A program made the translations under genes and the position numbers. The notes beneath the pieces are model-generated. The model saw nothing but the letters and a program-made list of their open reading frames with translations, was not told where the DNA came from and did no database searches. Positions 3,957 through 53,384 of a stretch of 64,000 nt of DNA are shown here, piece after piece. Location of the stretch: NCBI GenBank assembly GCA_902634185.1, contig CACPJC010000002.1, positions 1 through 64,000 of the forward strand, in the 5' to 3' direction. Each line of letters opens with the position of its first letter. Within the stretch, counting starts at the first letter, position 1. Source of the stretch: an uncultured Candidatus Actinomarina sp. (lineage in GTDB: Bacteria > Actinomycetota > Acidimicrobiia > Actinomarinales > Actinomarinaceae).

Positions 3957-6500
3957 CTACCTTAATTTAATAAACTTACTATTTGGGAAATTTTTTTGAT
4001 TGTTTAGTTTAATAGAGTTATAAAAATTCCATGCTAAAACAAGAACATAATCATAACTTTCTTTATCAACCCGATTAATATTTTTAATTTGAATGCCTGT
4101 GCCAGGAATAAATTTTTCCTGCTTAAGTTTATTATCGTCAATTGTAAAATCTAAATAATCAGAATTTATTCCAAAATAATTTAATACAGTTGTTGCTTTT
4201 GCTGGTGCTCCGTATCCAATAATTTTTTTATTATTTAAATTTATTTCCTTAATTTTTTTTAAAGAGCTTAGTTTTATTTTTTCCACATCATTCGCAAACT
4301 TATAATAAGTTTCAATCTTATCCAGTTTATTTTTCTTTTCTAATTCAATATATTCTCTCAAACTTTTGTGAGCTCTTTTATTTTTATTCATTGTTGCATA
4401 AACTCTTAATGATCCACCATGAGTATCAACTTCTTCAACTTTATAAACCTTCATCTCAGAATCTTTGAAAAAATGAAGTATAGATAGTAAACACCAATAG
4501 TTAACATGCTCGTGATAAATATTATCAAATGTTAAGTCTTTAATTGTTCTCAGTAAATATTGTATTTCAAAAATAAATTCTCCATCTTTCTTTAAAAGCT
4601 TTTTTACATTATCTAAAATATCTCTAAGTCCATCACTGTGAGCAAAAACGTTAAAAGCTGTAACAACATCTGCTTTACCGTGCTGTTTTGTTATCTTATT
4701 TACTGTTTTATCACTGAAATATTCTGTAAATGTTTTAAGTCCATTTGAATTTGCAATTTTTGCAACATTTTTTGCTGGCTCTACTCCAACAGATGTTATA
4801 CCAAGTTCTTGAATTGGTTCTAGGAATATTCCATCGTTACTTCCTATATCTACAAGTGTTGAATTTTTATCAAGATTTAAATCTTTCTTTAATTTATGTG
4901 CAAAATCTATGAAGTGACTTCTAAACAATTCGGAAGTAGATGATAAATAAAGATATGTATCAAACATTTTTTCTGGTGGAACTACGACACTTAATTGAGA
5001 ATTAAAACATTGTTTACAAAAGTTTAGATCTAGTGGATACATTTCATCATCTGCTTTTTTCTCATTGTTTAAATTGTTTGCCAAAGGTGAAAGACCTAAT
5101 GATAAATAATGATTTAAACCGCCTCCACATACTCTGCAATCAGTTTTATAGCTTTTAATTAAAAGGTCTCCTAGTTTTGTGTCTACTAATTCATATTTTA
5201 AAGTGTGTGTCATTCCATAGTTTTCATGTTCTCTTTCACCATTGACTAAATTTAAAAAAACTGAATCCTCCAAAAAAACCATTGTATGAGCAACATTGGG
5301 AGGTATTGTTGAAAGATCTCCATCCTTGATTAATCTAGTTTCAACAACAGAACTTGGGTTTAATAAGTCTTTTGTAACACTTATATATTTTCCTTTGATT
5401 AATAAGCATTTCTGAGTTTGTACAGGATGGTAATGGTTGCCTCTTATTGAACCTTTTTTTGACTCTACGTAGCCAATCATATTAATTGAATCATCTACAT
5501 AATAATTTGAAATAATTCCTCTTTCATCTACAAACTCATCAGCGCCGGATTCAATAATTTCATTTGATAATACTTGTGATTGATCGCTCCAAGATTCTAT
5601 CATTTCTCTAAAAGAATCCTCAACATTATATAAGAATTTAAAGCCATTGCTTCTGATTTTTTTGTTAGTTAACGTATATCCTTCGTTTGGGACAGGATCA
5701 TCTGTAATTACCAGGTCAGTCTTCTTATTGATTTTTTTACATAAATCTGCAACATCTTTTACAGATAAATTTTCATTTACACAATTAAATATCTCTTTGT
5801 TAATTTTTTTATTTTCACCAACAAACTCCATACATCGCACAACATCATTTATAGAAACTAAACTTTTAAGCTGTTTTCCACCAGAATATAATGTAATCTT
5901 TCCATTAAATGATGAGATTTTTGCAAATAAATTTGGCATTATATTTAAACGAGTAGAATCAAAAGATTTACCATATAAAGACCCAAGTCTAAGAATTACA
6001 AAATTTTTATTTGATTTGATTAAATCGTTTTCTGATTCAAGTTTGCCTTTTGCATAGTCTAAAACAGGGCTTGGTTCATGTGTTTCATCGATATTATATT
6101 TAACTTTTTTAAGACCTTCAAATATTACATGAGTTGATGGAAAAACTATTTTCGCACTTTCTGACGATAAATTAATTATGTTTCTTGTTCCTTCAACTCC
6201 TACTCCAAAAACTAACTTTTCATGATTAATATTTATATCTTCTTTGACAGTCGCAACGTCTGATATACCTGCAAGATGATAAATGATATCAGCATCACTG
6301 ATCTCCTTATTAAGATTATTTGAATCAAGAATGTCAATTTGTCTATACTTAATACCCCATCTCTTTAATTGTTCAACTCTTGATGAGTGAAATTTATTAT
6401 CAATTACTGTTATATTTTTTGTTCTTGACTGGCCAGAATAAATTTTACATAGCTCCATGCCAATATATCCAAGACCCCCTGTGATAACAATTTTTTTCAT
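3957..6500 (-). CDS. Three-domain fusion: NDP-sugar epimerase/dehydratase + cupin + NDP-hexose C-methyltransferase
   Basis: GGLGYIG and YAKGK (SDR); FVDERG/RGNHYH/AHTM (cupin); CRVCG...CKQC, DIGSNDG, IYHEH, YGAPAK, VLAWNF (C-methyltransferase). Confidence 0.85.
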   Translation of the reverse strand: MKKIVITGGLGYIGMELCKIYSGQSRTKNITVIDNKFHSSRVEQLKRWGIKYRQIDILDSNNLNKEISDADIIYHLAGISDVATVKEDININHEKLVFGVGVEGTRNIINLSSESAKIVFPSTHVIFEGLKKVKYNIDETHEPSPVLDYAKGKLESENDLIKSNKNFVILRLGSLYGKSFDSTRLNIMPNLFAKISSFNGKITLYSGGKQLKSLVSINDVVRCMEFVGENKKINKEIFNCVNENLSVKDVADLCKKINKKTDLVITDDPVPNEGYTLTNKKIRSNGFKFLYNVEDSFREMIESWSDQSQVLSNEIIESGADEFVDERGIISNYYVDDSINMIGYVESKKGSIRGNHYHPVQTQKCLLIKGKYISVTKDLLNPSSVVETRLIKDGDLSTIPPNVAHTMVFLEDSVFLNLVNGEREHENYGMTHTLKYELVDTKLGDLLIKSYKTDCRVCGGGLNHYLSLGLSPLANNLNNEKKADDEMYPLDLNFCKQCFNSQLSVVVPPEKMFDTYLYLSSTSELFRSHFIDFAHKLKKDLNLDKNSTLVDIGSNDGIFLEPIQELGITSVGVEPAKNVAKIANSNGLKTFTEYFSDKTVNKITKQHGKADVVTAFNVFAHSDGLRDILDNVKKLLKKDGEFIFEIQYLLRTIKDLTFDNIYHEHVNYWCLLSILHFFKDSEMKVYKVEEVDTHGGSLRVYATMNKNKRAHKSLREYIELEKKNKLDKIETYYKFANDVEKIKLSSLKKIKEINLNNKKIIGYGAPAKATTVLNYFGINSDYLDFTIDDNKLKQEKFIPGTGIQIKNINRVDKESYDYVLVLAWNFYNSIKLNNQKNFPNSKFIKLR

Positions 6501-6621: not shown

Positions 6622-6695
6622 GGGCGCTTAGCTCAGTCCGGCAGAGCGCTTCCCTTACAAGGAAGAAGTCACAGGTTCAAATCCTGTAGCGCCCA
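6622..6695 (+). tRNA. tRNA-Val(TAC)
   Basis: Acceptor GGGCGCT/AGCGCCC, anticodon arm CTTCC-CTTACAA-GGAAG, T-loop GGTTCAAATCC; CCA not encoded. Confidence 0.95.
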
Positions 6696-6731
6696 CAAAG
6701 GTTTTTCAGAAATCTACCCTACGAAAATACA

Positions 6732-6753
6732 AAAAACCGCACAAAAACCGCAC
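6732..6753 (+). repeat. Tandem 11-bp doublet AAAAACCGCAC x2 (putative integrase arm-type sites)
   Basis: Read directly; begins 37 bp after the tRNA discriminator base. Confidence 0.8.
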
Positions 6754-6768
6754 ATTTATAGATAGCGC

Positions 6769-7425
6769 TTAAGCTTTTTTAGCTAACTCTCTTCTTGAGA
6801 AATAAATAATAATAGGGGTTCCAACAATAGTTGGGGCAACCCAGTTCAACCAAAGTGTAGCAAACGGATCTAAAGTCACAATAAACGCGGTTGTGGTTGC
6901 AATAGTTCCAGCAAGCATAAGATTTAGATGAAGATTAGTTCTGTCATAGAAATTTGGTCGCTCGACTATCTTCATACGACGAAAATCATTAAAACCTAAA
7001 GCTAGAGCTATAGACCCAAAAAGTATAGAGGTAATCCACATAGAATCTTTGATTAAAAATAAACTTATAGCCATAGAATAAAAAAGAATGCCAGTAGTGG
7101 TAATGAATACACCTAGCACTTTATCTATTTTCTCTCGTGCTCCATTTCTATCTCTTCCCTGACGATATCCCGAAAATGCTAAGTAAAAAGAAAAGATAGC
7201 AATAACAAACAGGAATGGGTTAAACTCACCTAACAAACTTAGTGGAATTGCTGTCACAAAAATAGTTGACATCCCATATACATAAATCATCCCTAATTTT
7301 TTATGTCTTTTATTGCCTTTTTTAATAAACAAAAGAAAATATGCAATACCTAAAGAAATAAACCCTGCAAGGATATGAATATAAAGAAGTGGTAGTTCAA
7401 TGTCTAAATAATCATTATTGACCAT
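6769..7425 (-). CDS. DUF2306-like membrane protein (cassette cargo)
   Basis: About 6 TM helices; HILAG...HKKLGMIYV...HLNLMLAG pattern. Confidence 0.7.
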   Translation of the reverse strand: MVNNDYLDIELPLLYIHILAGFISLGIAYFLLFIKKGNKRHKKLGMIYVYGMSTIFVTAIPLSLLGEFNPFLFVIAIFSFYLAFSGYRQGRDRNGAREKIDKVLGVFITTTGILFYSMAISLFLIKDSMWITSILFGSIALALGFNDFRRMKIVERPNFYDRTNLHLNLMLAGTIATTTAFIVTLDPFATLWLNWVAPTIVGTPIIIYFSRRELAKKA

Positions 7426-7445
7426 AAAGAAAATTCTAGTTATTT

Positions 7446-7467
7446 AACCGCACAAAAACCCCACAAA
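7446..7467 (+). repeat. Internal doublet AACCGCACAAA-AACCCCACAAA
   Basis: Read directly; hybrid of the 6732 and 8487 doublets, followed by TTTTCTAA as at 9297-9304. Confidence 0.8.
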
Positions 7468-7509
7468 TTTTCTAAGATAAATTTATAAATATAAAAATTA
7501 TTATTTGAT

Positions 7510-8031
7510 ATGAAAAAAAATTATTTTCAATACATATTAATTATTCAATTCATATTGATATTTATATGTATTTTTTTTATTTATCAAAATAATTTAAAGA
7601 TTTCATCTCAAAATATAGAAATTAAAAATTTAGAAGAATCAAATAAAAATTTGAACATTTCTCTTGAAGCATATATCACATCTCTTGAAGCAAATATCAC
7701 TTCTCTTGAAAATAATATAGATAATATTCCTTCAGGACCAAGAGGTCCAAAAGGAGATACAGGTCCTACTGGTCCACAAGGTGAACCAGGAAAAGATTCT
7801 GGCTTAAGTTCCAAACAGATACAGGACATAAGTAAAATAAAAACACTTGAATTGCGGGTAGACTCACTTTGGGACAGAATCCACAAGGTAGGATCAATTA
7901 ACTATACTTGGTATCAATATAAAAGTCTTATTCAGTTAAATAAATGTGTTGATATTTTAACTGACTATGTACTTTATCCAAATCTTTTTGGTGGAATCAC
8001 TGGTTTTGTAGAGATGGAATGTAAAGATTAG
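7510..8031 (+). CDS. Membrane-anchored coiled-coil/collagen-like protein (cassette cargo)
   Basis: N-terminal TM, heptad repeat ISLEAY-ITSLEAN-ITSLENN, seven G-X-Y triplets GPRGPKGDTGPTGPQGEPGKD. Confidence 0.75.
   Translation: MKKNYFQYILIIQFILIFICIFFIYQNNLKISSQNIEIKNLEESNKNLNISLEAYITSLEANITSLENNIDNIPSGPRGPKGDTGPTGPQGEPGKDSGLSSKQIQDISKIKTLELRVDSLWDRIHKVGSINYTWYQYKSLIQLNKCVDILTDYVLYPNLFGGITGFVEMECKD
7660..7710 (+). repeat. 21-bp period coding repeat (TCTCTTGAA at 7660, 7681, 7702)
   Basis: Read directly; encodes the heptad repeat. Confidence 0.8.
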
Positions 8032-8087
8032 TAAATATTTAATTGCATATAAGCTTTGTAAAATTGATTAATATTAATTAAGAATTA

Positions 8088-8480
8088 ATGAAAAAAACCT
8101 TAAAGTATTTACTTTTTTTACTGCTAATCGTATCGTGTACAAATTATCAAACTGAGTATAAAGATGATGCAATTAGAGAGCATAAAATTCTTTACGAATT
8201 AGAAAATATAGATTTTGATGAAGAAAAAATAATTGAATATATAAATCTTGAGTGTGAGTTTATTGAAGAAGGTATAGATGACCATATTGCTGATGATTTA
8301 CCAATTTATTACTTTATAGATTTTTATTACATTATTAAAAGAAATACAGTAGCAGATGCTCAAGCGGTTGAAAATTATATGGAAGCGATATTTAATTATT
8401 GTAATTTTTCTAGTGAGTTGGAAGACAATTGGGAGTCCTTAGAAGCTAGAGAAGAATCCTACAAAAAATTTAATTCTTAA
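8088..8480 (+). CDS. Acidic putative lipoprotein (cassette cargo)
   Basis: Signal peptide MKKTLKYLLFLLLIVSC with lipobox Cys. Confidence 0.65.
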   Translation: MKKTLKYLLFLLLIVSCTNYQTEYKDDAIREHKILYELENIDFDEEKIIEYINLECEFIEEGIDDHIADDLPIYYFIDFYYIIKRNTVADAQAVENYMEAIFNYCNFSSELEDNWESLEAREESYKKFNS

Positions 8481-8486
8481 CTACTT

Positions 8487-8508
8487 AACCCCACAAAAAC
8501 CCCACAAA
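8487..8508 (+). repeat. Doublet AACCCCACAAA x2
   Basis: Read directly; starts 7 bp after the cargo stop and ends about 120 bp before the tRNA core. Confidence 0.8.
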
Positions 8509-8514
8509 TTATTC

Positions 8515-8687
8515 AAAACTGTAGATACTCTTTGATAACCTCTGATATCTTTTTGATAGGGCTTAATTTCATTGACTCTATAAATTGATACTCTGTGATA
8601 CAACCTAGTATTTAATGGTTCTTTCCTTACAAGGAAGAAGTCACAGGTTCAAATCCTGTAGCGCCCACAAGGGTTTTTCAGAAATCT
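8515..8687 (+). repeat. att-like repeat copy 1: 110-bp spacer + tRNA-Val 3' half + 20-bp tail
   Basis: Ungapped match to 9303-9475 (11 mismatches in the 110-bp spacer by manual alignment); 8625-8667 is identical to tRNA 6653-6695. Confidence 0.9.
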
Positions 8688-8703
8688 TTACATATATATA
8701 CTC

Positions 8704-8724
8704 AAAAGACACCTAAAAGACACC
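8704..8724 (+). repeat. Doublet AAAAGACACC-T-AAAAGACACC
   Basis: Read directly; begins 37 bp after the tRNA-fragment discriminator (8667). Confidence 0.85.
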
Positions 8725-8762
8725 GCTTCTGTAGAGTTTCATTTGGTAATATACATTTAGTT

Positions 8763-9284
8763 ATGGAATTAGATTTTGAATTTGAGTTAAGCAAAGGAAA
8801 ACAAAACTCACTTGGAGAGACGTTAAAAGTAGTAGAACATATTCAAAACAATATAAAAGAAATTGATAAATTATTCTTATGTTTTTTTTCTAACAATTCT
8901 TTAGTTGCAATGAGAGCTATGAATGCAACAAAAAGAATAATAAAAGGTGATAATCATATTTTTGTTGAAAATAAAAAAAGATTCATAGATGAGTTTTCAG
9001 AGTCTGAACATAATGTAGTCAAACTTGGGCTTATTACAATTTATTATGATTTCATTTCATATTTTGACGATAAAGAATACAAAGTTATTAGTAAAAATGC
9101 AATGAGTTGGGTGGAAAATAGTAAAGACTGGATGATACTTGCTCAAGGTTTAAAACTTCTAGAAAAATTATCCAATTCAGACGAAATATTGAAGTCAAAT
9201 GTTATAAGTATCGCAAGACAGTTAAAGAATGATGAAAGAAAAGCTGTTAGATCTCAGGCACAAAAAATTTTAAAAGACACCTAA
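8763..9284 (+). CDS. HEAT/ARM-repeat-like helical protein (cassette cargo)
   Basis: Predicted all-helical; HEAT-like ends such as NNSLVAMRAMNA and DERKAVRSQAQKIL; stop codon lies inside the right doublet. Confidence 0.55.
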   Translation: MELDFEFELSKGKQNSLGETLKVVEHIQNNIKEIDKLFLCFFSNNSLVAMRAMNATKRIIKGDNHIFVENKKRFIDEFSESEHNVVKLGLITIYYDFISYFDDKEYKVISKNAMSWVENSKDWMILAQGLKLLEKLSNSDEILKSNVISIARQLKNDERKAVRSQAQKILKDT

Positions 9285-9292
9285 AAGACACC
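9272..9292 (+). repeat. Doublet AAAAGACACC-T-AAAAGACACC
   Basis: Identical to 8704-8724. Confidence 0.85.
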
Positions 9293-9302
9293 AAAATTTT
9301 CT

Positions 9303-9475
9303 AAAACTGTAGATACTCTCTGATAGCCTCTGATATCTTTTTAAAAGAGCTTGAGTTCATTGACTCTATGAATTGATACTCTCTGATACTACCTAGTATT
9401 TAGTGGTTCTTTCCTTACAAGGAAGAAGTCACAGGTTCAAATCCTGCAGCGCCCACAAAGGTTTTTCAGAAATCT
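9303..9475 (+). repeat. att-like repeat copy 2: spacer + tRNA-Val 3' half (one T>C change) + tail
   Basis: Matches 8515-8687 at a constant offset of 788 bp. Confidence 0.9.
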
Positions 9476-9507
9476 TTACATATTGACTAATCAATTATTA
9501 TGAAATT

Positions 9508-9675
9508 ATGAAATATAAAAAAGAGTTAAGTGTTTTACTTATTTTTGTAACTTTTGCTTGGCCAGTATTTGACATTCTTGACTCTAGTTACACTCCAACT
9601 CAAGTAATTTTAACTGTTATATTTGCTTATCTTGGAATACGTTTTACTTACTTCGTTTATTTTAAAAATAACTAA
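9508..9675 (+). CDS. Small 55-aa two-TM membrane protein (absent from the ORF track)
   Basis: Manual translation MKYKKELSVLLIFVTFAWPVFDILDSSYTPTQVILTVIFAYLGIRFTYFVYFKNN*; TATTAT-N6-ATG; fills the gap before the convergent gene. Confidence 0.65.
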   Translation: MKYKKELSVLLIFVTFAWPVFDILDSSYTPTQVILTVIFAYLGIRFTYFVYFKNN

Positions 9676-9685
9676 TTGTCTAAAA

Positions 9686-11347
9686 CTAATTCCTAATCGC
9701 TTTTTTAAAAATTCCATCTTGTTCAATCGTGATATCACTCTTGGTCATAGTGCATTCGAGATTAATCCAGCACTGGTCCCCAATATCTGGACCAACCCAT
9801 CCATTGCCACGATCTACATACTTAGCAATTGGTCGTGGATCAAATAATTCAGAAGCATTATCGCCAAAGATTGCAACGTAGCTAGTTGATCTGACTAATA
9901 ATGCAACCGAAAGAATAACTAGTGAAATACCTGCAAAATTAAATAGGTTTTTAAATTTAGATTCATCTACAAAAAATCCTAGTAGGGAAATTATTACCAG
10001 CATTATTCCCATTAAGTAACGTGGCGTAGGACCGTAAAGAACAAGATAGATTATATTTATTAAAATAAATAAAAATACTGTAATCTTTAAATTGTTATCA
10101 ATATGTGTTTTTTTAAAAAATACAATTTTTATAAAAAGCAAAAACATAAGCGATAATAAAAAATTAATTAATATTGCATAATTTTCTTCTACTGAAATAA
10201 ATCCTGAAATCCAATCAGATAGTTTGTAATCATATAAAGATAACGAGTAACTCCAATTTCTTGTTGCTAATTCATACTCTAAAGTAGAACCTGGCAAGTA
10301 CCAATCAAAATTGTTTAAACAAGAGAAATTTACTGGAAAAATAAAACAACCGGTTGTTATGTATTGCTTGGCGATCCAAATGCCTGCAAAGATTGTTGTT
10401 ATTAAATTTACATTAAACAACTTTTTAAATTTTACCTTTTGGTTCTTAATTAAAACAAAATAAAAATAAATTAAAAATAACGCAACTGGAAAACTACTAA
10501 GTTTTATCTGTAGACTAAATAAGGTTAGAAATGAAATTAAAGAAATATCTTTAAAATTTACATTTTTATCTTTTAAATGAATAAGAAGGGACCTTGAAAT
10601 CAATAAAAATAATATTGCCACAGAAGTGTCTTGCTTTGTTACGCCTTGAATGAATAAAAAACCATTCCTACCACCATAAATACCAAAATTATCCAGCAGT
10701 GAAAACACTAGTAGAAAAAATGATGAATTTTTAAGAACTTTATTGTCACTTAAGATATCTCCTAATAAAACAATATAAAAGGAATGAATAAATAATAAAT
10801 TGAGAAAGTGCAATAAAAAGAAATTATTTCCAAACCATAAAATTGCTGAGAGGTATTCATAAATTGAGGACATTCCAAAAGTCCAGTGTATGTTCACCAT
10901 TCCTTCAATTATGTTTGACTGTTGAAGCCAATGTTGATGGTTTAAATGGTAAAATCCTGCATCATAATGCCAACCAGTGTTGAACGTGCTGACAATTAAA
11001 ACTCCAGGAATTAAAAAGTAGTTTATAAACTTTTGAAAGTCTATATTAAAACTAAATTTATCTATTTTTAGAAAATTTGGAATTAACAACAAAATAAGTA
11101 AAAAATAGGTCAAATTGTTCTCAAGTCCAAAAAAGAAATTTATTAAGATTAAAAAATTTCCAACGAATGCACATCCAATTATTGGATATAGGTAATTTGA
11201 TTTAGTGAAAATTACTTTATTAGGAATGCTGGATGATTTAAAAATAATTCTATTTTCCAAAATGTGAAATGACCTACCTATAAAATAAAAATAAATATAA
11301 AAAATTACATAAATTAGAAAATAATTTAAATATGGAAAAATTTGCAT
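9686..11347 (-). CDS. Polytopic membrane protein, LIC_10190-like (putative GT-C), paralog 1
   Basis: HYDAGFYH, DNFGxxGGRNG, TGCFIFP, C-terminal GDQCWINLEC. Confidence 0.65.
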   Translation of the reverse strand: MQIFPYLNYFLIYVIFYIYFYFIGRSFHILENRIIFKSSSIPNKVIFTKSNYLYPIIGCAFVGNFLILINFFFGLENNLTYFLLILLLIPNFLKIDKFSFNIDFQKFINYFLIPGVLIVSTFNTGWHYDAGFYHLNHQHWLQQSNIIEGMVNIHWTFGMSSIYEYLSAILWFGNNFFLLHFLNLLFIHSFYIVLLGDILSDNKVLKNSSFFLLVFSLLDNFGIYGGRNGFLFIQGVTKQDTSVAILFLLISRSLLIHLKDKNVNFKDISLISFLTLFSLQIKLSSFPVALFLIYFYFVLIKNQKVKFKKLFNVNLITTIFAGIWIAKQYITTGCFIFPVNFSCLNNFDWYLPGSTLEYELATRNWSYSLSLYDYKLSDWISGFISVEENYAILINFLLSLMFLLFIKIVFFKKTHIDNNLKITVFLFILINIIYLVLYGPTPRYLMGIMLVIISLLGFFVDESKFKNLFNFAGISLVILSVALLVRSTSYVAIFGDNASELFDPRPIAKYVDRGNGWVGPDIGDQCWINLECTMTKSDITIEQDGIFKKAIRN

Positions 11348-11363
11348 TTTGTTCCCATATTTT

Positions 11364-11750
11364 TCAATTACTTATAATTCTTTTTGACAGAACTAAAAAA
11401 ACAGAGGATGTTAAAACATAAATTAATAAATATAATCGTGAATATCCATAAACTCTAAAAATAATATATACCGAAGATAGGGATATTAAATTAACCAAAA
11501 TATAGAAACTAAAGCGAAAATAATGCAATAGATATATTTCGATGAAAGGTTTAAATGTATGTATCAAAACTAATGTAACTAAAGATACAGTTAAGCAAAT
11601 TAAGTAATAAGTAAAAATAACTTCGCTTTCACTTAAATCAATTATTGGTCTTAAATCTTCAAGTAATTGTTGGGTATCAATGCTAACACTTTGATTTATA
11701 GTAAAAAAATTTAATATAAACAAACCAACAAATCTAAATAATAAAAGCAT
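11364..11750 (-). CDS. Small membrane protein resembling the N-terminal TM domain of the WcaJ-like gene at 53534
   Basis: About 4 TM; IIFRVYGYSRLYLLIY versus TIFRISSLISRGYLLVF. Confidence 0.5.
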   Translation of the reverse strand: MLLLFRFVGLFILNFFTINQSVSIDTQQLLEDLRPIIDLSESEVIFTYYLICLTVSLVTLVLIHTFKPFIEIYLLHYFRFSFYILVNLISLSSVYIIFRVYGYSRLYLLIYVLTSSVFLVLSKRIISN

Positions 11751-11844
11751 ATTTAAAAGATACTAATCAAAAAAAAATAAAATTTTATTTATTATCAAAT
11801 ATGGAATTTGGCTTTTTTTAATTGTTATAATTATCACCTAAATC

Positions 11845-12276
11845 ATGAAAAGAAATAAAAAAACTTTTACACTTTGTATATTTTTATTATTTTTGATTTC
11901 TTGTTCAGATAATTTAGATACTGATCAAAATGGTTACATAAAACCAAATGTAGATTTTTTAAACTGTCCTACTAATGTTCATATTGAAGATACATTAATT
12001 CTCGATTATGAAATAAATACTGGAAGTGGCAGTATTCAAGAAGTAGACATAAAAATATTACAAGAAGCGGATGTAGTTGTATCATATAAAGTAAATTCAA
12101 GAGTAAATTCAAAAAACTATAAATTTTTAGATCCTTTTGAAAATCACATATATTCATACGAATTAAACAATAGTGCAAAAATTGAGCAAGAAAATTATCT
12201 ATTCACGATAAAAATAACAGATAACTTAGATCAGGTTGCAGATGCAGAATGTCAATTCGCTATGAAATCTGGATGA
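11845..12276 (+). CDS. Putative lipoprotein with beta-rich (Ig-like) domain
   Basis: Lipobox FLISC; beta-strand pattern ending YLFTIKITD. Confidence 0.6.
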   Translation: MKRNKKTFTLCIFLLFLISCSDNLDTDQNGYIKPNVDFLNCPTNVHIEDTLILDYEINTGSGSIQEVDIKILQEADVVVSYKVNSRVNSKNYKFLDPFENHIYSYELNNSAKIEQENYLFTIKITDNLDQVADAECQFAMKSG

Positions 12277-12323: not shown

Positions 12324-13982
12324 ATGACAATTTTCTTAAATGTTCTTTTTTATAATTTTTTATATTTTCTGGGGAGAGGAGTTTTCCTACTTCCTAATTT
12401 CATTACAGACAGAAAGAAACAAATTAAGGAGCGGATATTAGGCTTTCCTGTTTCAACTTTTTATGTAGTTTTTGGATTAATTGTTTTAGGAAATCTTGGG
12501 TTCATTTTGAACTTTTTTATAAAACTTGATTCAATAATTCCATTTTTTTTTGTTACGCTACCTTTAGTAATTAATTTGTTTTACAAACTCGATATTAAAG
12601 ATAAAACTACAAAGTTTATTACAAACATAATAATTCCATCAATCCTCTCAATTTCATCGTACAATATTGGGTTCCATTATGATTCTGGATACTATCACTT
12701 AAATTTTCAAAATTGGCTACAAAAGGAAAAAATTGTCCTTGGGCTATCAAATATATTTCAGCCTTTTGGCTTAGGCTCAATTAACGACTATATCTCTTCA
12801 CTGTTGTGGTTAGATAACAATTTTATTTTGTTACATTTTGTACAGCTTGCTTCAATTGCTGCATTTTATACTTTTTTAGTTCACTTATTTATCTATAGTG
12901 AAAATCTAATCGATAAAGTTATCTCAGTAAATATTTTAATTTTCTCAATTTTAGACAATTTTGGATTTGGTGGAGGAAGAAATGGATTTATTTATATACA
13001 AGGAGTTGGTAAACCAGATATAACATTTTCAATTATCTTTTTTACAGGATTCTTGTTAATTTTTAGATTATCCTCAAGTGAAAAAATTAAATCAACAGAC
13101 TTTTTATATTTAAACTGGATTGTTTTATTTTGTTTTCAACTTAAAGTATTTGGAGCACTTTTAATAATTCCATATATATATCTTTTATTTGTACATAAAG
13201 AAAAGATTTTGAAAATAATAAAACAAACAAGAACTTTTTACATACAAGTTTTTGTTTTGATATCTTGGTCTCTAAAAAGTTTACTTTTATCTGGTTGTAT
13301 AGTTTTTCCGGTCTCTCAAACCTGTATTGAAAATTTAAATTGGTTTACCCCCAAATTATTTAACGATTTTTATATTGAGACAAAAATATTTAATAAAGCG
13401 TTTTTAGTAAATGATGGATTTATAAATTGGTTTACGAGTTGGTATGCTGTTGTTGAAAATAGGAATATTTTACTTAATTTTATAACTTCATTTCTAATAA
13501 TTTATATTTTAAATTTATTATTTTTAAAAAGAAAGATCAAAATCTCAAGAGAAAATTTTTATGTTTATATTTTTCTAACAATTTGTTTTATTGCACTGAT
13601 ATTTACATCTCCACTTCCACGATTTTTAATTCCAGTTTTTTTGATCACAGTTTCTGCAATAAATATGAGCGAGAGTTTTAAAATTAAAGGAATAAAATTT
13701 TTAACACATAACAATTTCAAATTAATGTTTCTAACTTTAGTGCTTATATCAAATATTTTATTAGTTCCATTAAATTCTCACAAAAGTTTTATAAGATCAC
13801 CTATTGATTCAATAAAAATTAACTTAAGTGAAATTAATTATATTGAAAACAAACACTGGGGTGTTGGTCCTGAAAATGGTGATAGATGTTGGATAAATTT
13901 AGAATGTACAAATCTTGAATATATCAATCCAAGATTTTCGACTGTTTTTGGTTATACAGTTATTAAAGAAGCTGATAAATAA
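12324..13982 (+). CDS. LIC_10190-like membrane protein, paralog 2
   Basis: HYDSGYYH, DNFGFGGGRNG, SGCIVFP, GDRCWINLEC. Confidence 0.65.
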   Translation: MTIFLNVLFYNFLYFLGRGVFLLPNFITDRKKQIKERILGFPVSTFYVVFGLIVLGNLGFILNFFIKLDSIIPFFFVTLPLVINLFYKLDIKDKTTKFITNIIIPSILSISSYNIGFHYDSGYYHLNFQNWLQKEKIVLGLSNIFQPFGLGSINDYISSLLWLDNNFILLHFVQLASIAAFYTFLVHLFIYSENLIDKVISVNILIFSILDNFGFGGGRNGFIYIQGVGKPDITFSIIFFTGFLLIFRLSSSEKIKSTDFLYLNWIVLFCFQLKVFGALLIIPYIYLLFVHKEKILKIIKQTRTFYIQVFVLISWSLKSLLLSGCIVFPVSQTCIENLNWFTPKLFNDFYIETKIFNKAFLVNDGFINWFTSWYAVVENRNILLNFITSFLIIYILNLLFLKRKIKISRENFYVYIFLTICFIALIFTSPLPRFLIPVFLITVSAINMSESFKIKGIKFLTHNNFKLMFLTLVLISNILLVPLNSHKSFIRSPIDSIKINLSEINYIENKHWGVGPENGDRCWINLECTNLEYINPRFSTVFGYTVIKEADK

Positions 13983-52655: not shown

Positions 52656-52701
52656 TGGTGGCCAGAGGCAGAATCGAACTGCCGACCCCTTGTTTTTCAG
52701 A
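52656..52701 (-). repeat. tRNA-Phe 3' half duplicate with encoded CCA (attR-like)
   Basis: 52658-52701 is identical to 53311-53354 (44 bp). Confidence 0.9.
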
Positions 52702-52819
52702 TAAAGGCAGACCACTTGACCTTATCTTATTGTAACTTATTCGTTGTTAGTTTTCGCTCATTACCTAGAGCTTGTATCAAGTAACGAGCAGTAAATAAAT
52801 CACAATAAAGAAACCTAAG

Positions 52820-52841
52820 TGGCACAGTTTTGGCACAGTTT
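52820..52841 (-). repeat. Doublet TGGCACAGTTT x2 (AAACTGTGCCA x2 on the minus strand)
   Basis: Read directly; abuts the cargo stop codon and lies 119 bp from the core. Confidence 0.85.
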
Positions 52842-53225
52842 TTATTCTTTTTCAACTAACTTGTTAACCAGAATAAACAATGATCCACCTATAAGAGTCC
52901 ATAGTATATCATTCCAATCAAAAACACCTCTTCCAGGTGTGTATTTTGCAATGAATTCGTTACCTATTAGGCCAACCATAGAAATCACTACTGACCACTT
53001 CAATCTATTTTTGTAAACTGATGAATTAGATTTAAATACCTCTGGAATGCTTACATAAAAAAAACTTGGTATGCCGATGCCTGGAAAGAAGTTAGGAGCT
53101 ACTCCAAGAAAATAAATTACAAGATCGTTTCCACCAACATAACTGGGTCTAATGTAGCTTTGAACCAAGCCAAATAAAAAAAATGAGATTCCAAATATTG
53201 TGTAGTACAGAAAGTGTTTCTTCAT
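52842..53225 (-). CDS. Small membrane protein, VanZ-like C-terminus (cassette cargo)
   Basis: About 4 TM; APNF, GNEF, GVFDWNDILWTLIG. Confidence 0.6.
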   Translation of the reverse strand: MKKHFLYYTIFGISFFLFGLVQSYIRPSYVGGNDLVIYFLGVAPNFFPGIGIPSFFYVSIPEVFKSNSSVYKNRLKWSVVISMVGLIGNEFIAKYTPGRGVFDWNDILWTLIGGSLFILVNKLVEKE

Positions 53226-53311
53226 ATATTGAATATATTACTTTATTGGCTATTACAAGTGTCTGTCGAGAAGTTTTGTGACAAAAGTCTTTAATTTGTT
53301 TAAAAACCTTG

Positions 53312-53384
53312 TGGCCAGAGGCAGAATCGAACTGCCGACCCCTTGTTTTTCAGACAAGTGCTCTACCGACTGAGCTATCTGGCC
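53312..53384 (-). tRNA. tRNA-Phe(GAA)
   Basis: Acceptor GGCCAGA/TCTGGCC, anticodon arm CTTGT-CTGAAAA-ACAAG, GTTCGATTC. Confidence 0.95.

Follow-up and report, generated by a model that had tools for sequence, protein, structure and literature searches.

How do genes enter and leave the genomes of 'Candidatus Actinomarina', marine free-living bacteria that rank among the smallest and the most abundant and whose genomes have been reported to be without ordinary mobile elements? We examined this question at a single locus, a tandem array of short gene units bounded by partial copies of tRNA-Val, in a 64,000-nt stretch of DNA from an uncultured member of the genus (contig CACPJC010000002.1 of assembly GCA_902634185.1, positions 1 to 64,000; hereafter the window). 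The assembly to which the window belongs (G000) comprises 974 kb in 16 contigs and is 83% complete, for a genome of ~1.1 Mb. The units carry cargo genes and no recombinase, share a conserved end anatomy with units in related genomes and metagenomes, and recur as nearly identical blocks in distant species. We conclude that these cassettes are probably moved by site-specific recombination, either supplied in trans or achieved through accretion with satellites or phages.

The array lies in a cell-envelope glycosylation island. The window encodes glycosyltransferases, sugar epimerases, methyltransferases, a Wzy-like protein and an ABC exporter (Pfam scan), its GC content is 24-32% throughout, and ARAGORN finds five tRNA genes, with tRNA-Val at 6.6 kb and tRNA-Phe, -Asp, -Lys and -Arg at 52-60 kb. 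The low GC, the glycosyltransferase content and these five tRNAs all agree with fGI1, the flexible genomic island described by Lopez-Perez et al. 2020 (PMC7771536). The accessible text of that paper reports cassettes inserted at the tRNAs of fGI1 in 'Ca. Actinomarinales' and bounded by partial-tRNA direct repeats, a prophage in the tRNA-Val of one genome, and tRNA-Ile repeat loci, so that the phenomenon as such has been published before for this group. Its searchable main text does not contain the word 'integrase' and describes no arm, paired 10-mers or helper element, and a 2026 preprint (10.64898/2026.04.03.716425), in the portion of its text available, still calls the integration mechanism of the island unidentified. 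New here are a module resembling a phage attachment site (attP) with matched pairs of 10-mers, a crossover that appears to lie in the tRNA-derived core, quantified transfer across species, and a candidate helper-type satellite with its integrase family.

A tandem array bounded by partial tRNA-Val copies

Starting within the intact tRNA-Val(TAC) gene (6622-6696, + strand; ARAGORN), a 67-nt core block occurs three times (6649-6715, 8621-8687 and 9409-9475; 97% identity, repeat finder), at spacings of 1972 and 788 nt. [quoted passage not shown] Copies 2 and 3 sit within a 201-nt repeat (8495-8695 versus 9283-9483; 90% identical, ungapped). In the alignment, identity to the full tRNA begins at the anticodon arm, and a different sequence of ~126 nt precedes both partial copies. 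Used as a query against the whole 974-kb assembly, the 201-nt repeat matched at these three places only, and the repeats are therefore not due to chance; the 10-mer pairs of the array are also found nowhere else in G000 (motif search). The locus bears the signature of tRNA targeting, with the 3' part of tRNA-Val repeated from the anticodon arm and the full tRNA intact.

A previous sequence-only reading of the window had reported the recurring tRNA-Val 3' half, the units of 1972 and 788 bp and the CAA(A/G) tail after each copy, all of which we confirm (partial copies at 8621 and 9409). The 110-bp ungapped spacer that it placed before the partial copies is real and 90% identical, with a length of ~126 nt (8495-8620). 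It had overlooked the paired 10-mers at the cassette ends and the continuation of the array past copy 3. Its statement that the window holds no integrase, excisionase or transposase also stands, since Pfam identified none of these families among the 65 window open reading frames (ORFs) of at least 70 aa. PF00589 matches two genes in G000, both ~300-aa Xer-like genes on other contigs (C4 and C5), and serine recombinases or resolvases were found in 0 of 62 family genomes, G000 included. The array resolves into the parts listed here, where the stretch immediately upstream of a partial core is called its arm.

6622-6696, + strand: full tRNA-Val(TAC), called by ARAGORN and matched by the Rfam tRNA model at 73.8 bits; its 3' half is the first att core and the attL of the array
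6649-6715, + strand: core copy 1, including the GGG-TTTTT tail; one of three copies at 97%
6735-6754, + strand: left 10-mer pair of unit 1a, AACCGCACA x2, 11 nt apart (repeat finder and motif search)
6769-7425, - strand: unit 1a cargo, a 218-aa multi-pass membrane protein with a weak DUF2306 match (ORF list, Pfam)
7446-7476, + strand: decayed junction, a hybrid 10-mer pair (CCGCAC then CCCCAC) and the first 11 nt of an arm (repeats, motif search)
7510-8031, + strand: unit 1b cargo, a 173-aa protein that has a membrane anchor at the N terminus and a short stretch of collagen-like G-X-Y; weak collagen- or tail-fibre-like matches only
8088-8480, + strand: unit 1b cargo, a 130-aa predicted lipoprotein with no family match (ORF list, Pfam)
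8487-8506, + strand: right 10-mer pair of unit 1, AACCCCACA x2 (repeat finder and motif search)
8507-8620, + strand: arm of unit 1, family A, with GATA at 8524, 8534, 8544 and 8555 and GATAC/GATAC/AGTAT at 8587, 8597 and 8607; phasing 10-11 nt
8621-8687, + strand: core copy 2, a partial tRNA-Val that is the attR of unit 1 and the attL of unit 2 (repeat finder; Rfam partial tRNA at 8602-8659)
8704-8724, + strand: left 10-mer pair of unit 2, AAAAGACACC x2, 11 nt apart; an exact 21-nt repeat shared with 9272-9292
8763-9284, + strand: unit 2 cargo, a 173-aa protein with no assigned family, whose stop codon falls inside the right 10-mer pair
9272-9292, + strand: right 10-mer pair of unit 2, 100% identical to the left pair (repeat finder)
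9293-9408, + strand: arm of unit 2, family A, 90% identical to the arm of unit 1 and with 3 differences from the arm behind the same cassette in G029
9409-9475, + strand: core copy 3, a partial tRNA-Val that is the attR of unit 2 (repeat finder); end of the G029 match
9476-9675, + strand: remnant of a further unit, with a truncated linker TTTACATAT (9476-9484) and a 55-aa membrane-peptide ORF (9508-9675); no closing core here

The four window cargo proteins have no convincing family. The Rfam tRNA model also matches 8602-8659, that is, copy 2 with the last ~20 nt of the arm before it (33.8 bits against a gathering threshold of 29; model positions 9-63), and the D-arm region of the tRNA may survive, in degenerate form, as the end of the arm.

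Cassette ends are conserved across relatives and metagenomes

We compared the window with 20 loci fetched from relatives and with 78 stretches of metagenome contigs holding an arm-core junction. Unit counts rest on 21 genome loci and 70 non-redundant metagenome loci, with 60 units listed, 56 of them distinct. The arm is present in 25 of the 61 other family genomes, beside the tRNA-Val 3' half in every case inspected, and 16 loci have one to three partial copies behind a full tRNA. The 56 distinct complete units are 442-6198 bp long (median ~1.4 kb), and nearly all are built in the same order: core, a linker of 17-25 nt, a 10-mer pair, cargo, the same pair, ~8 nt, an arm of ~115 nt, and core. 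The 10-mers of a pair are 11 nt apart, and a junction measures ~250 bp from one pair to the other. Arms bear GATA(C)/AGTA(T) repeats phased at 10-11 nt, and across 40 aligned junctions, whose arms fall in two diverged families (A and B), the motif columns are the conserved columns.

The two ends of a cassette are matched. Both pairs were detected in 43 units; left and right pairs share at least 15 nt in 29 of these, most others belong to the same class with one mismatch, and the truly mismatched cases (such as window unit 1 and L041) are fused units. In a control comparison across junctions, the upstream pair matched the downstream pair in 0 of 33 cases. Overall, the 10-mers follow a loose consensus, …C-N-C-A-C-A, with at least 15 classes.

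The attP sites of phage lambda and mycobacteriophage L5 are ~250 bp long and combine a tRNA-overlapping core with pairs of ~10-bp arm-type integrase sites on both arms and phased accessory-protein sites between them. The pair-to-pair span of the units resembles a full ~250-bp attP, with the same layout of paired sites on both sides, phased sites and a tRNA-derived core, whereas the 10-mers differ between units far more than the arm sites of a single phage. An alternative reading of the arm as a structured RNA was rejected: RNAalifold on the 40 junctions gave -4.78 kcal/mol and 12 predicted pairs, all in the proximal arm or the tRNA part, with 0 compensatory pairs, and tRNA was the sole Rfam family matched on the array.

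Whole units are shared between species while arrays turn over

Nucleotide identities show that whole units are shared across species and that array turnover is rapid. Unit 2, taken exactly core to core (8621-9475, 855 nt), is 98.8% identical in G029, a genome with 80% rpoB identity in which it is the first unit behind the tRNA. Unit 1a (6649-7475, 830 nt) is 97.6% identical in G035, also at 80% rpoB identity, where it comes second in the array, with another linker. By contrast, the arrays differ in all four of the near relatives G038, G048, G049 and G025 (rpoB identity to G000 of 100%, 99%, 98% and 98%, respectively), and the copy of unit 2 in G038 is only 95% identical. The sequence-only reading had proposed that the same genes, present without variation in relatives, would speak against mobility; the arrays instead vary even at 98-100% rpoB identity. 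The non-coding arm is 85-93% identical in genomes with rpoB identities of 79-83% and 86-87% identical in close relatives, and with such high identity in distant genomes and lower identity in close ones it does not follow genome phylogeny.

Metagenome contigs add further variety. The array was compared with the assembled contigs of 4 of 24 runs, in which many different sequences precede and follow the cores. Parts of unit 1b are uncovered in some of these four runs, where contigs cannot show absence, and the 130-aa part of this unit is matched in only one family genome (G044, 84%). Genes related to the cargo also occur elsewhere on the chromosome. The 173-aa gene of unit 2 (8763-9284) has ~72% DNA matches away from the array in at least 9 relatives (e.g., G055:C1:364142 and G047:C2:133999), and copies of the unit 1a gene 84-86% identical to it lie away from tRNA-Val in several genomes. 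Cassette genes thus have resident relatives outside the array.

Linkage breaks within the tRNA-derived core

If an integrase joined cassettes at the core, an arm should stay with the cassette upstream and a linker with the cassette downstream. Arm identity tracked the class of the upstream 10-mer pair (mean identity difference +0.145, reached in 0 of 500 label shuffles) and not that of the downstream pair (+0.063, 43 of 500). Linkers behaved the opposite way, their identity following the pair downstream (+0.131, 0 of 500) and showing no link to the pair upstream (-0.022, 469 of 500); these figures are indicative only, since the shuffle tests ignore the relatedness of the sequences. Arms follow the upstream cassette and linkers the downstream one, and linkage therefore breaks inside the tRNA-derived core. 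This indicative pattern is the one predicted for an integrase crossover, and not the one predicted for exchange anywhere in the ~190 nt of homology.

A candidate helper satellite at the same tRNA

Most family genomes carry two Xer genes only, the exception being G048 (rpoB identity 99%). The first unit behind its tRNA-Val, 5971 bp long, encodes a 366-aa tyrosine integrase (PF00589, 5e-19; phrog_1, 1.5e-50), an Xre-type helix-turn-helix protein (HTH_3, E 1.4e-4, 22.3 bits, just below the 23-bit cut-off), a 103-aa ORF with weak resemblance to an excisionase, a DUF3631 protein and a small terminase subunit (phrog_4102, 6e-17). It is followed by a 784-bp and then a 2418-bp unit, both integrase-less. 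The 5971-bp unit has matched 10-mer pairs, TTTCCCCCAC x2, at both ends, and its arm belongs to a third family, C. The expectation of the sequence-only reading that the same frame would be found next to an integrase is therefore borne out for the end anatomy and not for the arm family. A 1642-bp integrase-less unit in G046 appears to have an arm of family C and nearly the same 10-mers as this element.

With a predicted integrase, regulator, replication module and packaging-hijack gene at a fixed att site, the G048 unit fits the description of a satellite like the phage-inducible chromosomal islands (PICIs). Classical PICIs measure roughly 10-15 kb; the G048 element is smaller (~6 kb), and no helper phage is known. 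Its putative link to the window cassettes consists of the shared end anatomy and site. Of the satellite genes, metagenome contig L150 shows only a small terminase (same PHROG, 4.9e-17), in a unit whose right end can be aligned with arms of the A/B family and whose other end lies beyond the contig. L150 is not convincing as an excised attP, since its upstream and downstream 10-mers share CACACACA but their spacers differ (ATT versus AAA), and a match to an integrase at the contig end (26 residues, E=0.006) was rejected because no open frame supports it. Relatives of the G048 integrase in metagenomes form 24 clusters (at 90% identity) that are 42-100% identical to it, on contigs of which the longest reach ~1-10 kb; contigs break at repeats, and these lengths therefore say nothing on circular forms.

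Outside G048, searches for integrases and satellite genes yielded little. An integrase is present in 1 of the 56 units (that of G048), and tblastn with seven satellite proteins found no gene fragments in other loci except the L150 terminase. When the G048 and G006 integrases were compared by tblastn with the 21 genome and 70 metagenome loci, only the G048 gene itself was credible, and a class-wide genome search with the G048 integrase found, outside G048, only relatives of at most 36% identity in other families. The G006 integrase was rejected as a tRNA-Val helper because it occupies a different site. It is a 336-339-aa tyrosine integrase beside tRNA-Leu(TAA) (L057, G006:C1:219000-238999, ~6844-11882), and lies between two full copies of tRNA-Ile(GAT) ~5 kb apart, which mark a separate integrative element. 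The extra integrases of G019, G013, G061 and G050 have neither a tRNA (Aragorn) nor a tRNA-Val core or arm (blastn) alongside, and an integrase fragment in G015 lies ~4.4 kb from a tRNA-Phe/Asp/Lys cluster.

Fusion and decay of units

At the 7446-7476 junction of the window, a deletion has taken out the remainder of the arm together with the core, the linker and the left pair that would come next; the hybrid pair and the 11 nt of arm that are left therefore identify unit 1 as two cassettes fused by deletion. The three and one cargo genes of the sequence-only reading are present as it described them. Its view of the units as complete, att-bounded minimal elements likewise holds in that they are att-bounded and recombinase-free, and fails for unit 1, a fusion with a dead internal junction. 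Contigs in three metagenome runs (X2, X3 and X6) pass from 7464 into an intact arm (joint 7464->9294), and unit 1a with a complete right end therefore exists in other cells. The array also extends beyond copy 3. The 55-aa ORF that follows is a bounded cassette in other genomes: G053 has the tail of a similar peptide gene and then a core copy, and one metagenome contig joins 9671 to a 10-mer pair and arm.

Comparable events are seen at other loci. In G049, two cargo modules are parted by a lone 10-mer pair, and 'empty' units, in which a linker and single pair are followed by an arm without cargo, occur in L052 (after the core at 10776) and L051 (after the core at 10071; both in tRNA-oriented coordinates), the pair in L051 being a hybrid of two classes. 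These fused and empty units (window 7446, G049, L051 and L052) identify the 21-nt pairs as deletion hot spots, at which either short homology or some second activity brings about the loss. The mean number of mismatches to the 3' half of the tRNA rises from 0.12 in rank 1 (n=16) to 2.1 in rank 2 (n=10) and 2.0 in rank 3 (n=3), and this decay of partial copies away from the tRNA fits entry at the functional tRNA.

Proposed mechanism and alternative explanations

We favour site-specific movement of cassettes, in which the array would have formed by accretion of non-autonomous integrative cassettes at tRNA-Val inside fGI1. Each cassette would keep both halves of a ~250-bp attP-like module, whose core is the tRNA-Val 3' half and whose crossover would fall in or next to the anticodon loop. 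The 10-mer pairs are best read as putative arm-type sites for a heterobivalent tyrosine integrase. Most likely, a tRNA-Val-specific tyrosine integrase and an excisionase would insert and remove cassettes in trans, with a small phage satellite like that of G048 at the same tRNA, or a temperate phage, as the source of the enzyme. Alternatively, cassettes may travel together with such an element after accretion, as do cis-mobilizable elements (CIMEs). New arrivals would insert at the functional tRNA, displacing earlier units outward, and older junctions would decay or be deleted between 10-mer pairs, which would lead to cassette fusion. The end anatomy and its conservation, the break of linkage in the core, the sharing of whole units between species and the fast turnover are observed; the identity of the enzyme, its action in trans, and the binding of proteins by the 10-mers and GATA repeats are inferred.

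Several observations weigh against movement by such an integrase. Integrases are very rare, with one at the tRNA-Val site among 62 species genomes and none within 2 kb of the junction in the 70 non-redundant metagenome loci, and none was found with arm families A or B of the window, the G048 element having family C. The 10-mers vary so strongly between units, with their 15 or more classes, that one integrase could hardly read all of them. Viral contigs, in which the sequence-only reading had suggested the frame might be sought, gave 0 matches in IMG/VR for both the arm-core junction pattern and the tRNA-Val core; the G048 integrase had one distant match there (27%) when searched as a single protein and none when searched as a 20-sequence alignment. 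Circles, empty sites and tandem joints of the same unit were not seen in the contigs of the four metagenome runs, which break at repeats and cannot show absence. In addition, part of the window array is certainly decaying, because the junction inside unit 1 is dead and no closing core follows the last unit, and the disregard of relatedness in the shuffle tests tempers the linkage result.

This decay could mean that the units are inert scars, leftovers of once-autonomous phages or satellites that no longer move, with the variation between genomes reflecting independent old insertions and deletions. Such an origin would account for the dead junction in unit 1, the decaying distal cores, the empty and fused units and the near absence of integrases, and the islands that hold tycheposons are described, in the preprint text available (10.1101/2020.12.28.424599), as containing degenerate remnants and scattered partial tRNAs. 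We nevertheless consider it unlikely. No fragments of integrase or satellite genes turned up in 55 of the 56 units, ends are intact and matched in most units, and coding density is 0.89. Old, immobile insertions are also hard to reconcile with whole units that are 98-99% identical core to core at 80% rpoB identity while near-clonal relatives differ, and with arms better conserved than rpoB between distant species.

Homologous recombination alone, with the ~190-250-bp arm and core junctions serving as portable homology for RecA-dependent exchange and no site-specific recombinase involved, would draw on the direct repeats of 67-200 nt, 90-100% identical, that flank every unit. It would also be in keeping with the deletions between 21-nt pairs that clearly occurred (window 7446, G049, L051 and L052) and with the failure to find a resident integrase. 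Yet linkage breaks in the core and not at any point of the ~190-nt homology, the same tRNA also holds an element that has both an integrase and this end anatomy, and the phased motifs and paired 10-mers persist in two diverged families of arms, a feature that homology alone would not select; we regard this explanation as quite improbable. We give very little credence to a role of the host XerC and XerD proteins, which would act on the cassettes as they do on integrative mobile elements exploiting Xer (IMEX) and make a dedicated integrase unnecessary. The two Xer-like genes are indeed the only tyrosine recombinases in G000 and most relatives, and no serine recombinases were found in the 62 genomes. 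However, the core has the 5+7+5 symmetry of an anticodon arm and not the 11-6-11 layout of dif, and paired sites on long arms are what heterobivalent integrases, and not Xer recombinases, typically use; no Xer system is known to target the anticodon arm of a tRNA. A crude search of G000 for dif-like patterns gave scattered matches only and did not identify dif.

Relation to known tRNA-anchored and cassette systems

The array belongs to a known kind, that of tRNA-anchored additive islands or accretion arrays of att-bounded, recombinase-free elements. CIMEs, as described in the accessible text of PMC5704250, keep attL and attR, are without integration and transfer genes, and occupy the 3' end of a target gene side by side with autonomous elements. 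When such an element integrates into one of the att sites, the resulting composite can move, as in islands of the ICESt1/ICESt3 type; CIMEs are regarded there as decay products of integrative conjugative elements (ICEs) or integrative mobilizable elements (IMEs), moved by conjugation. The window units likewise keep attL and attR without integration or transfer genes. Tandem accretion with an autonomous element at the same att site is found in G048, whereas G000 has no such element. The units differ from CIMEs in being far smaller (median 1.4 kb), in outnumbering autonomous elements (55 of 56), in having no gene remnants, and in having a phage satellite, not a conjugative element, as candidate helper.

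Tycheposons of Prochlorococcus (Hackl et al., 10.1101/2020.12.28.424599) are, in the available preprint text, tyrosine-recombinase elements at tRNA genes that leave partial tRNAs and whose newcomers push older ones inward; tandem elements are parted by a partial tRNA, and PICI-like and cargo-carrying forms occur. The terms 'arm-type', 'iteron' and 'direct repeat' do not appear in that text. A streamlined marine host, tRNA anchoring and tandem partial tRNAs are shared with the window units, but tycheposons are defined by their own recombinase and hallmark genes, and the units have neither.

The sequence-only reading called the array integron-like, a term that holds as an analogy only. Like integrons and clusters of attC sites lacking integron-integrases (CALINs), the arrays consist mostly of recombinase-free cassettes of one to three genes, with 78% co-oriented ORFs and diverse cargo that includes defence genes. 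Unlike them, the window array is anchored at a tRNA gene and has no IntI, attI, Pc platform or attC hairpins, and its junctions consist of a tRNA half and a ~115-nt arm. This anatomy makes the question of gene gain testable, as it provides a ~250-bp module, a crossover apparently confined to the core, and a candidate enzyme family (the G048 integrase and its 24 clusters).

Cargo of the cassettes

The same frame surrounds different cargo in relatives, as the sequence-only reading had anticipated: the 89 cargo ORFs form 75 clusters. The units are ~89% coding, and 69 of the 89 ORFs (78%) are oriented like the tRNA. We scanned 59 cluster representatives with Pfam, leaving out the genes of the G048 satellite, three window cargo ORFs and five short ORFs; 24 of the 59 had a match at E<=1e-5 and 35 had none. 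Restriction and nuclease matches comprise type I restriction-modification, NgoPII with a C5 methylase, GmrSD_C, an N4/N6 methylase, NucS_C, HNH and T5orf172, and further matches include an Hsp70-like ATPase, trypsin-like and subtilisin-like proteases with fn3, and mucin-like proteins. The cargo thus covers restriction systems of types I, II and IV along with other nucleases, secreted proteases and surface proteins, a spectrum that makes the array a trading post for phage-defence and cell-surface genes, and the tRNA-Val site a defence-gene hot spot.

Whole restriction-modification systems occur as single cassettes at tRNA-Val (L039, L052, L036/L037 and L047), among them a type I hsdRMS in a 6198-bp unit and ResIII with a methylase/specificity fusion in one of 5277 bp. 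A third, for NgoPII and a C5 methylase, measures 2129 bp and recurs in two genomes at equal length and with the same cargo proteins. A GmrSD-like gene is likewise carried as a cassette at this tRNA.

A more speculative extension, which we put forward tentatively and with some doubt, is a three-tier system of phage, satellite and cassette. The cassettes would be hyperparasites, each with a complete ~250-bp attP-like module and keyed by its four matched 10-mers to one variant among the varied integrases of satellites or phages, and would form the main vehicle for restriction-modification and surface genes in Actinomarina. If so, any cell visited by a matching helper could gain, lose or export a cassette.

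Neighbouring genes and a second cassette at tRNA-Phe

Directly upstream of tRNA-Val, an 847-aa fusion protein (3957-6500, - strand) combines an NAD-dependent epimerase/dehydratase, a zinc-binding region and a C-methyltransferase (Methyltransf_13/23/14); this upstream flank of the tRNA also varies among relatives. Just downstream of the array, 9686-11347 (- strand) and 12324-13982 (+ strand) encode paralogous multi-pass membrane proteins of ~552 aa without a Pfam family, with a small gene pair between them. Both end in a common C-terminal motif, ...GP(D/E)xGDxCWINLEC, and they may be polysaccharide polymerase- or ligase-like.

A similar cassette is found at tRNA-Phe (52658-53384, - strand), where the full tRNA occupies 53311-53384 and a 44-nt copy of its 3' half 52658-52701. 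The unit measures 653 bp and has one ORF, for a 127-aa membrane protein; a matching left pair was not seen. The partial copy is preceded by an arm of ~113 nt and a 10-mer pair, AAACTGTGCCA x2 (52815-52841), and ARAGORN miscalls this copy together with upstream arm sequence as an 82-nt tRNA-Phe.

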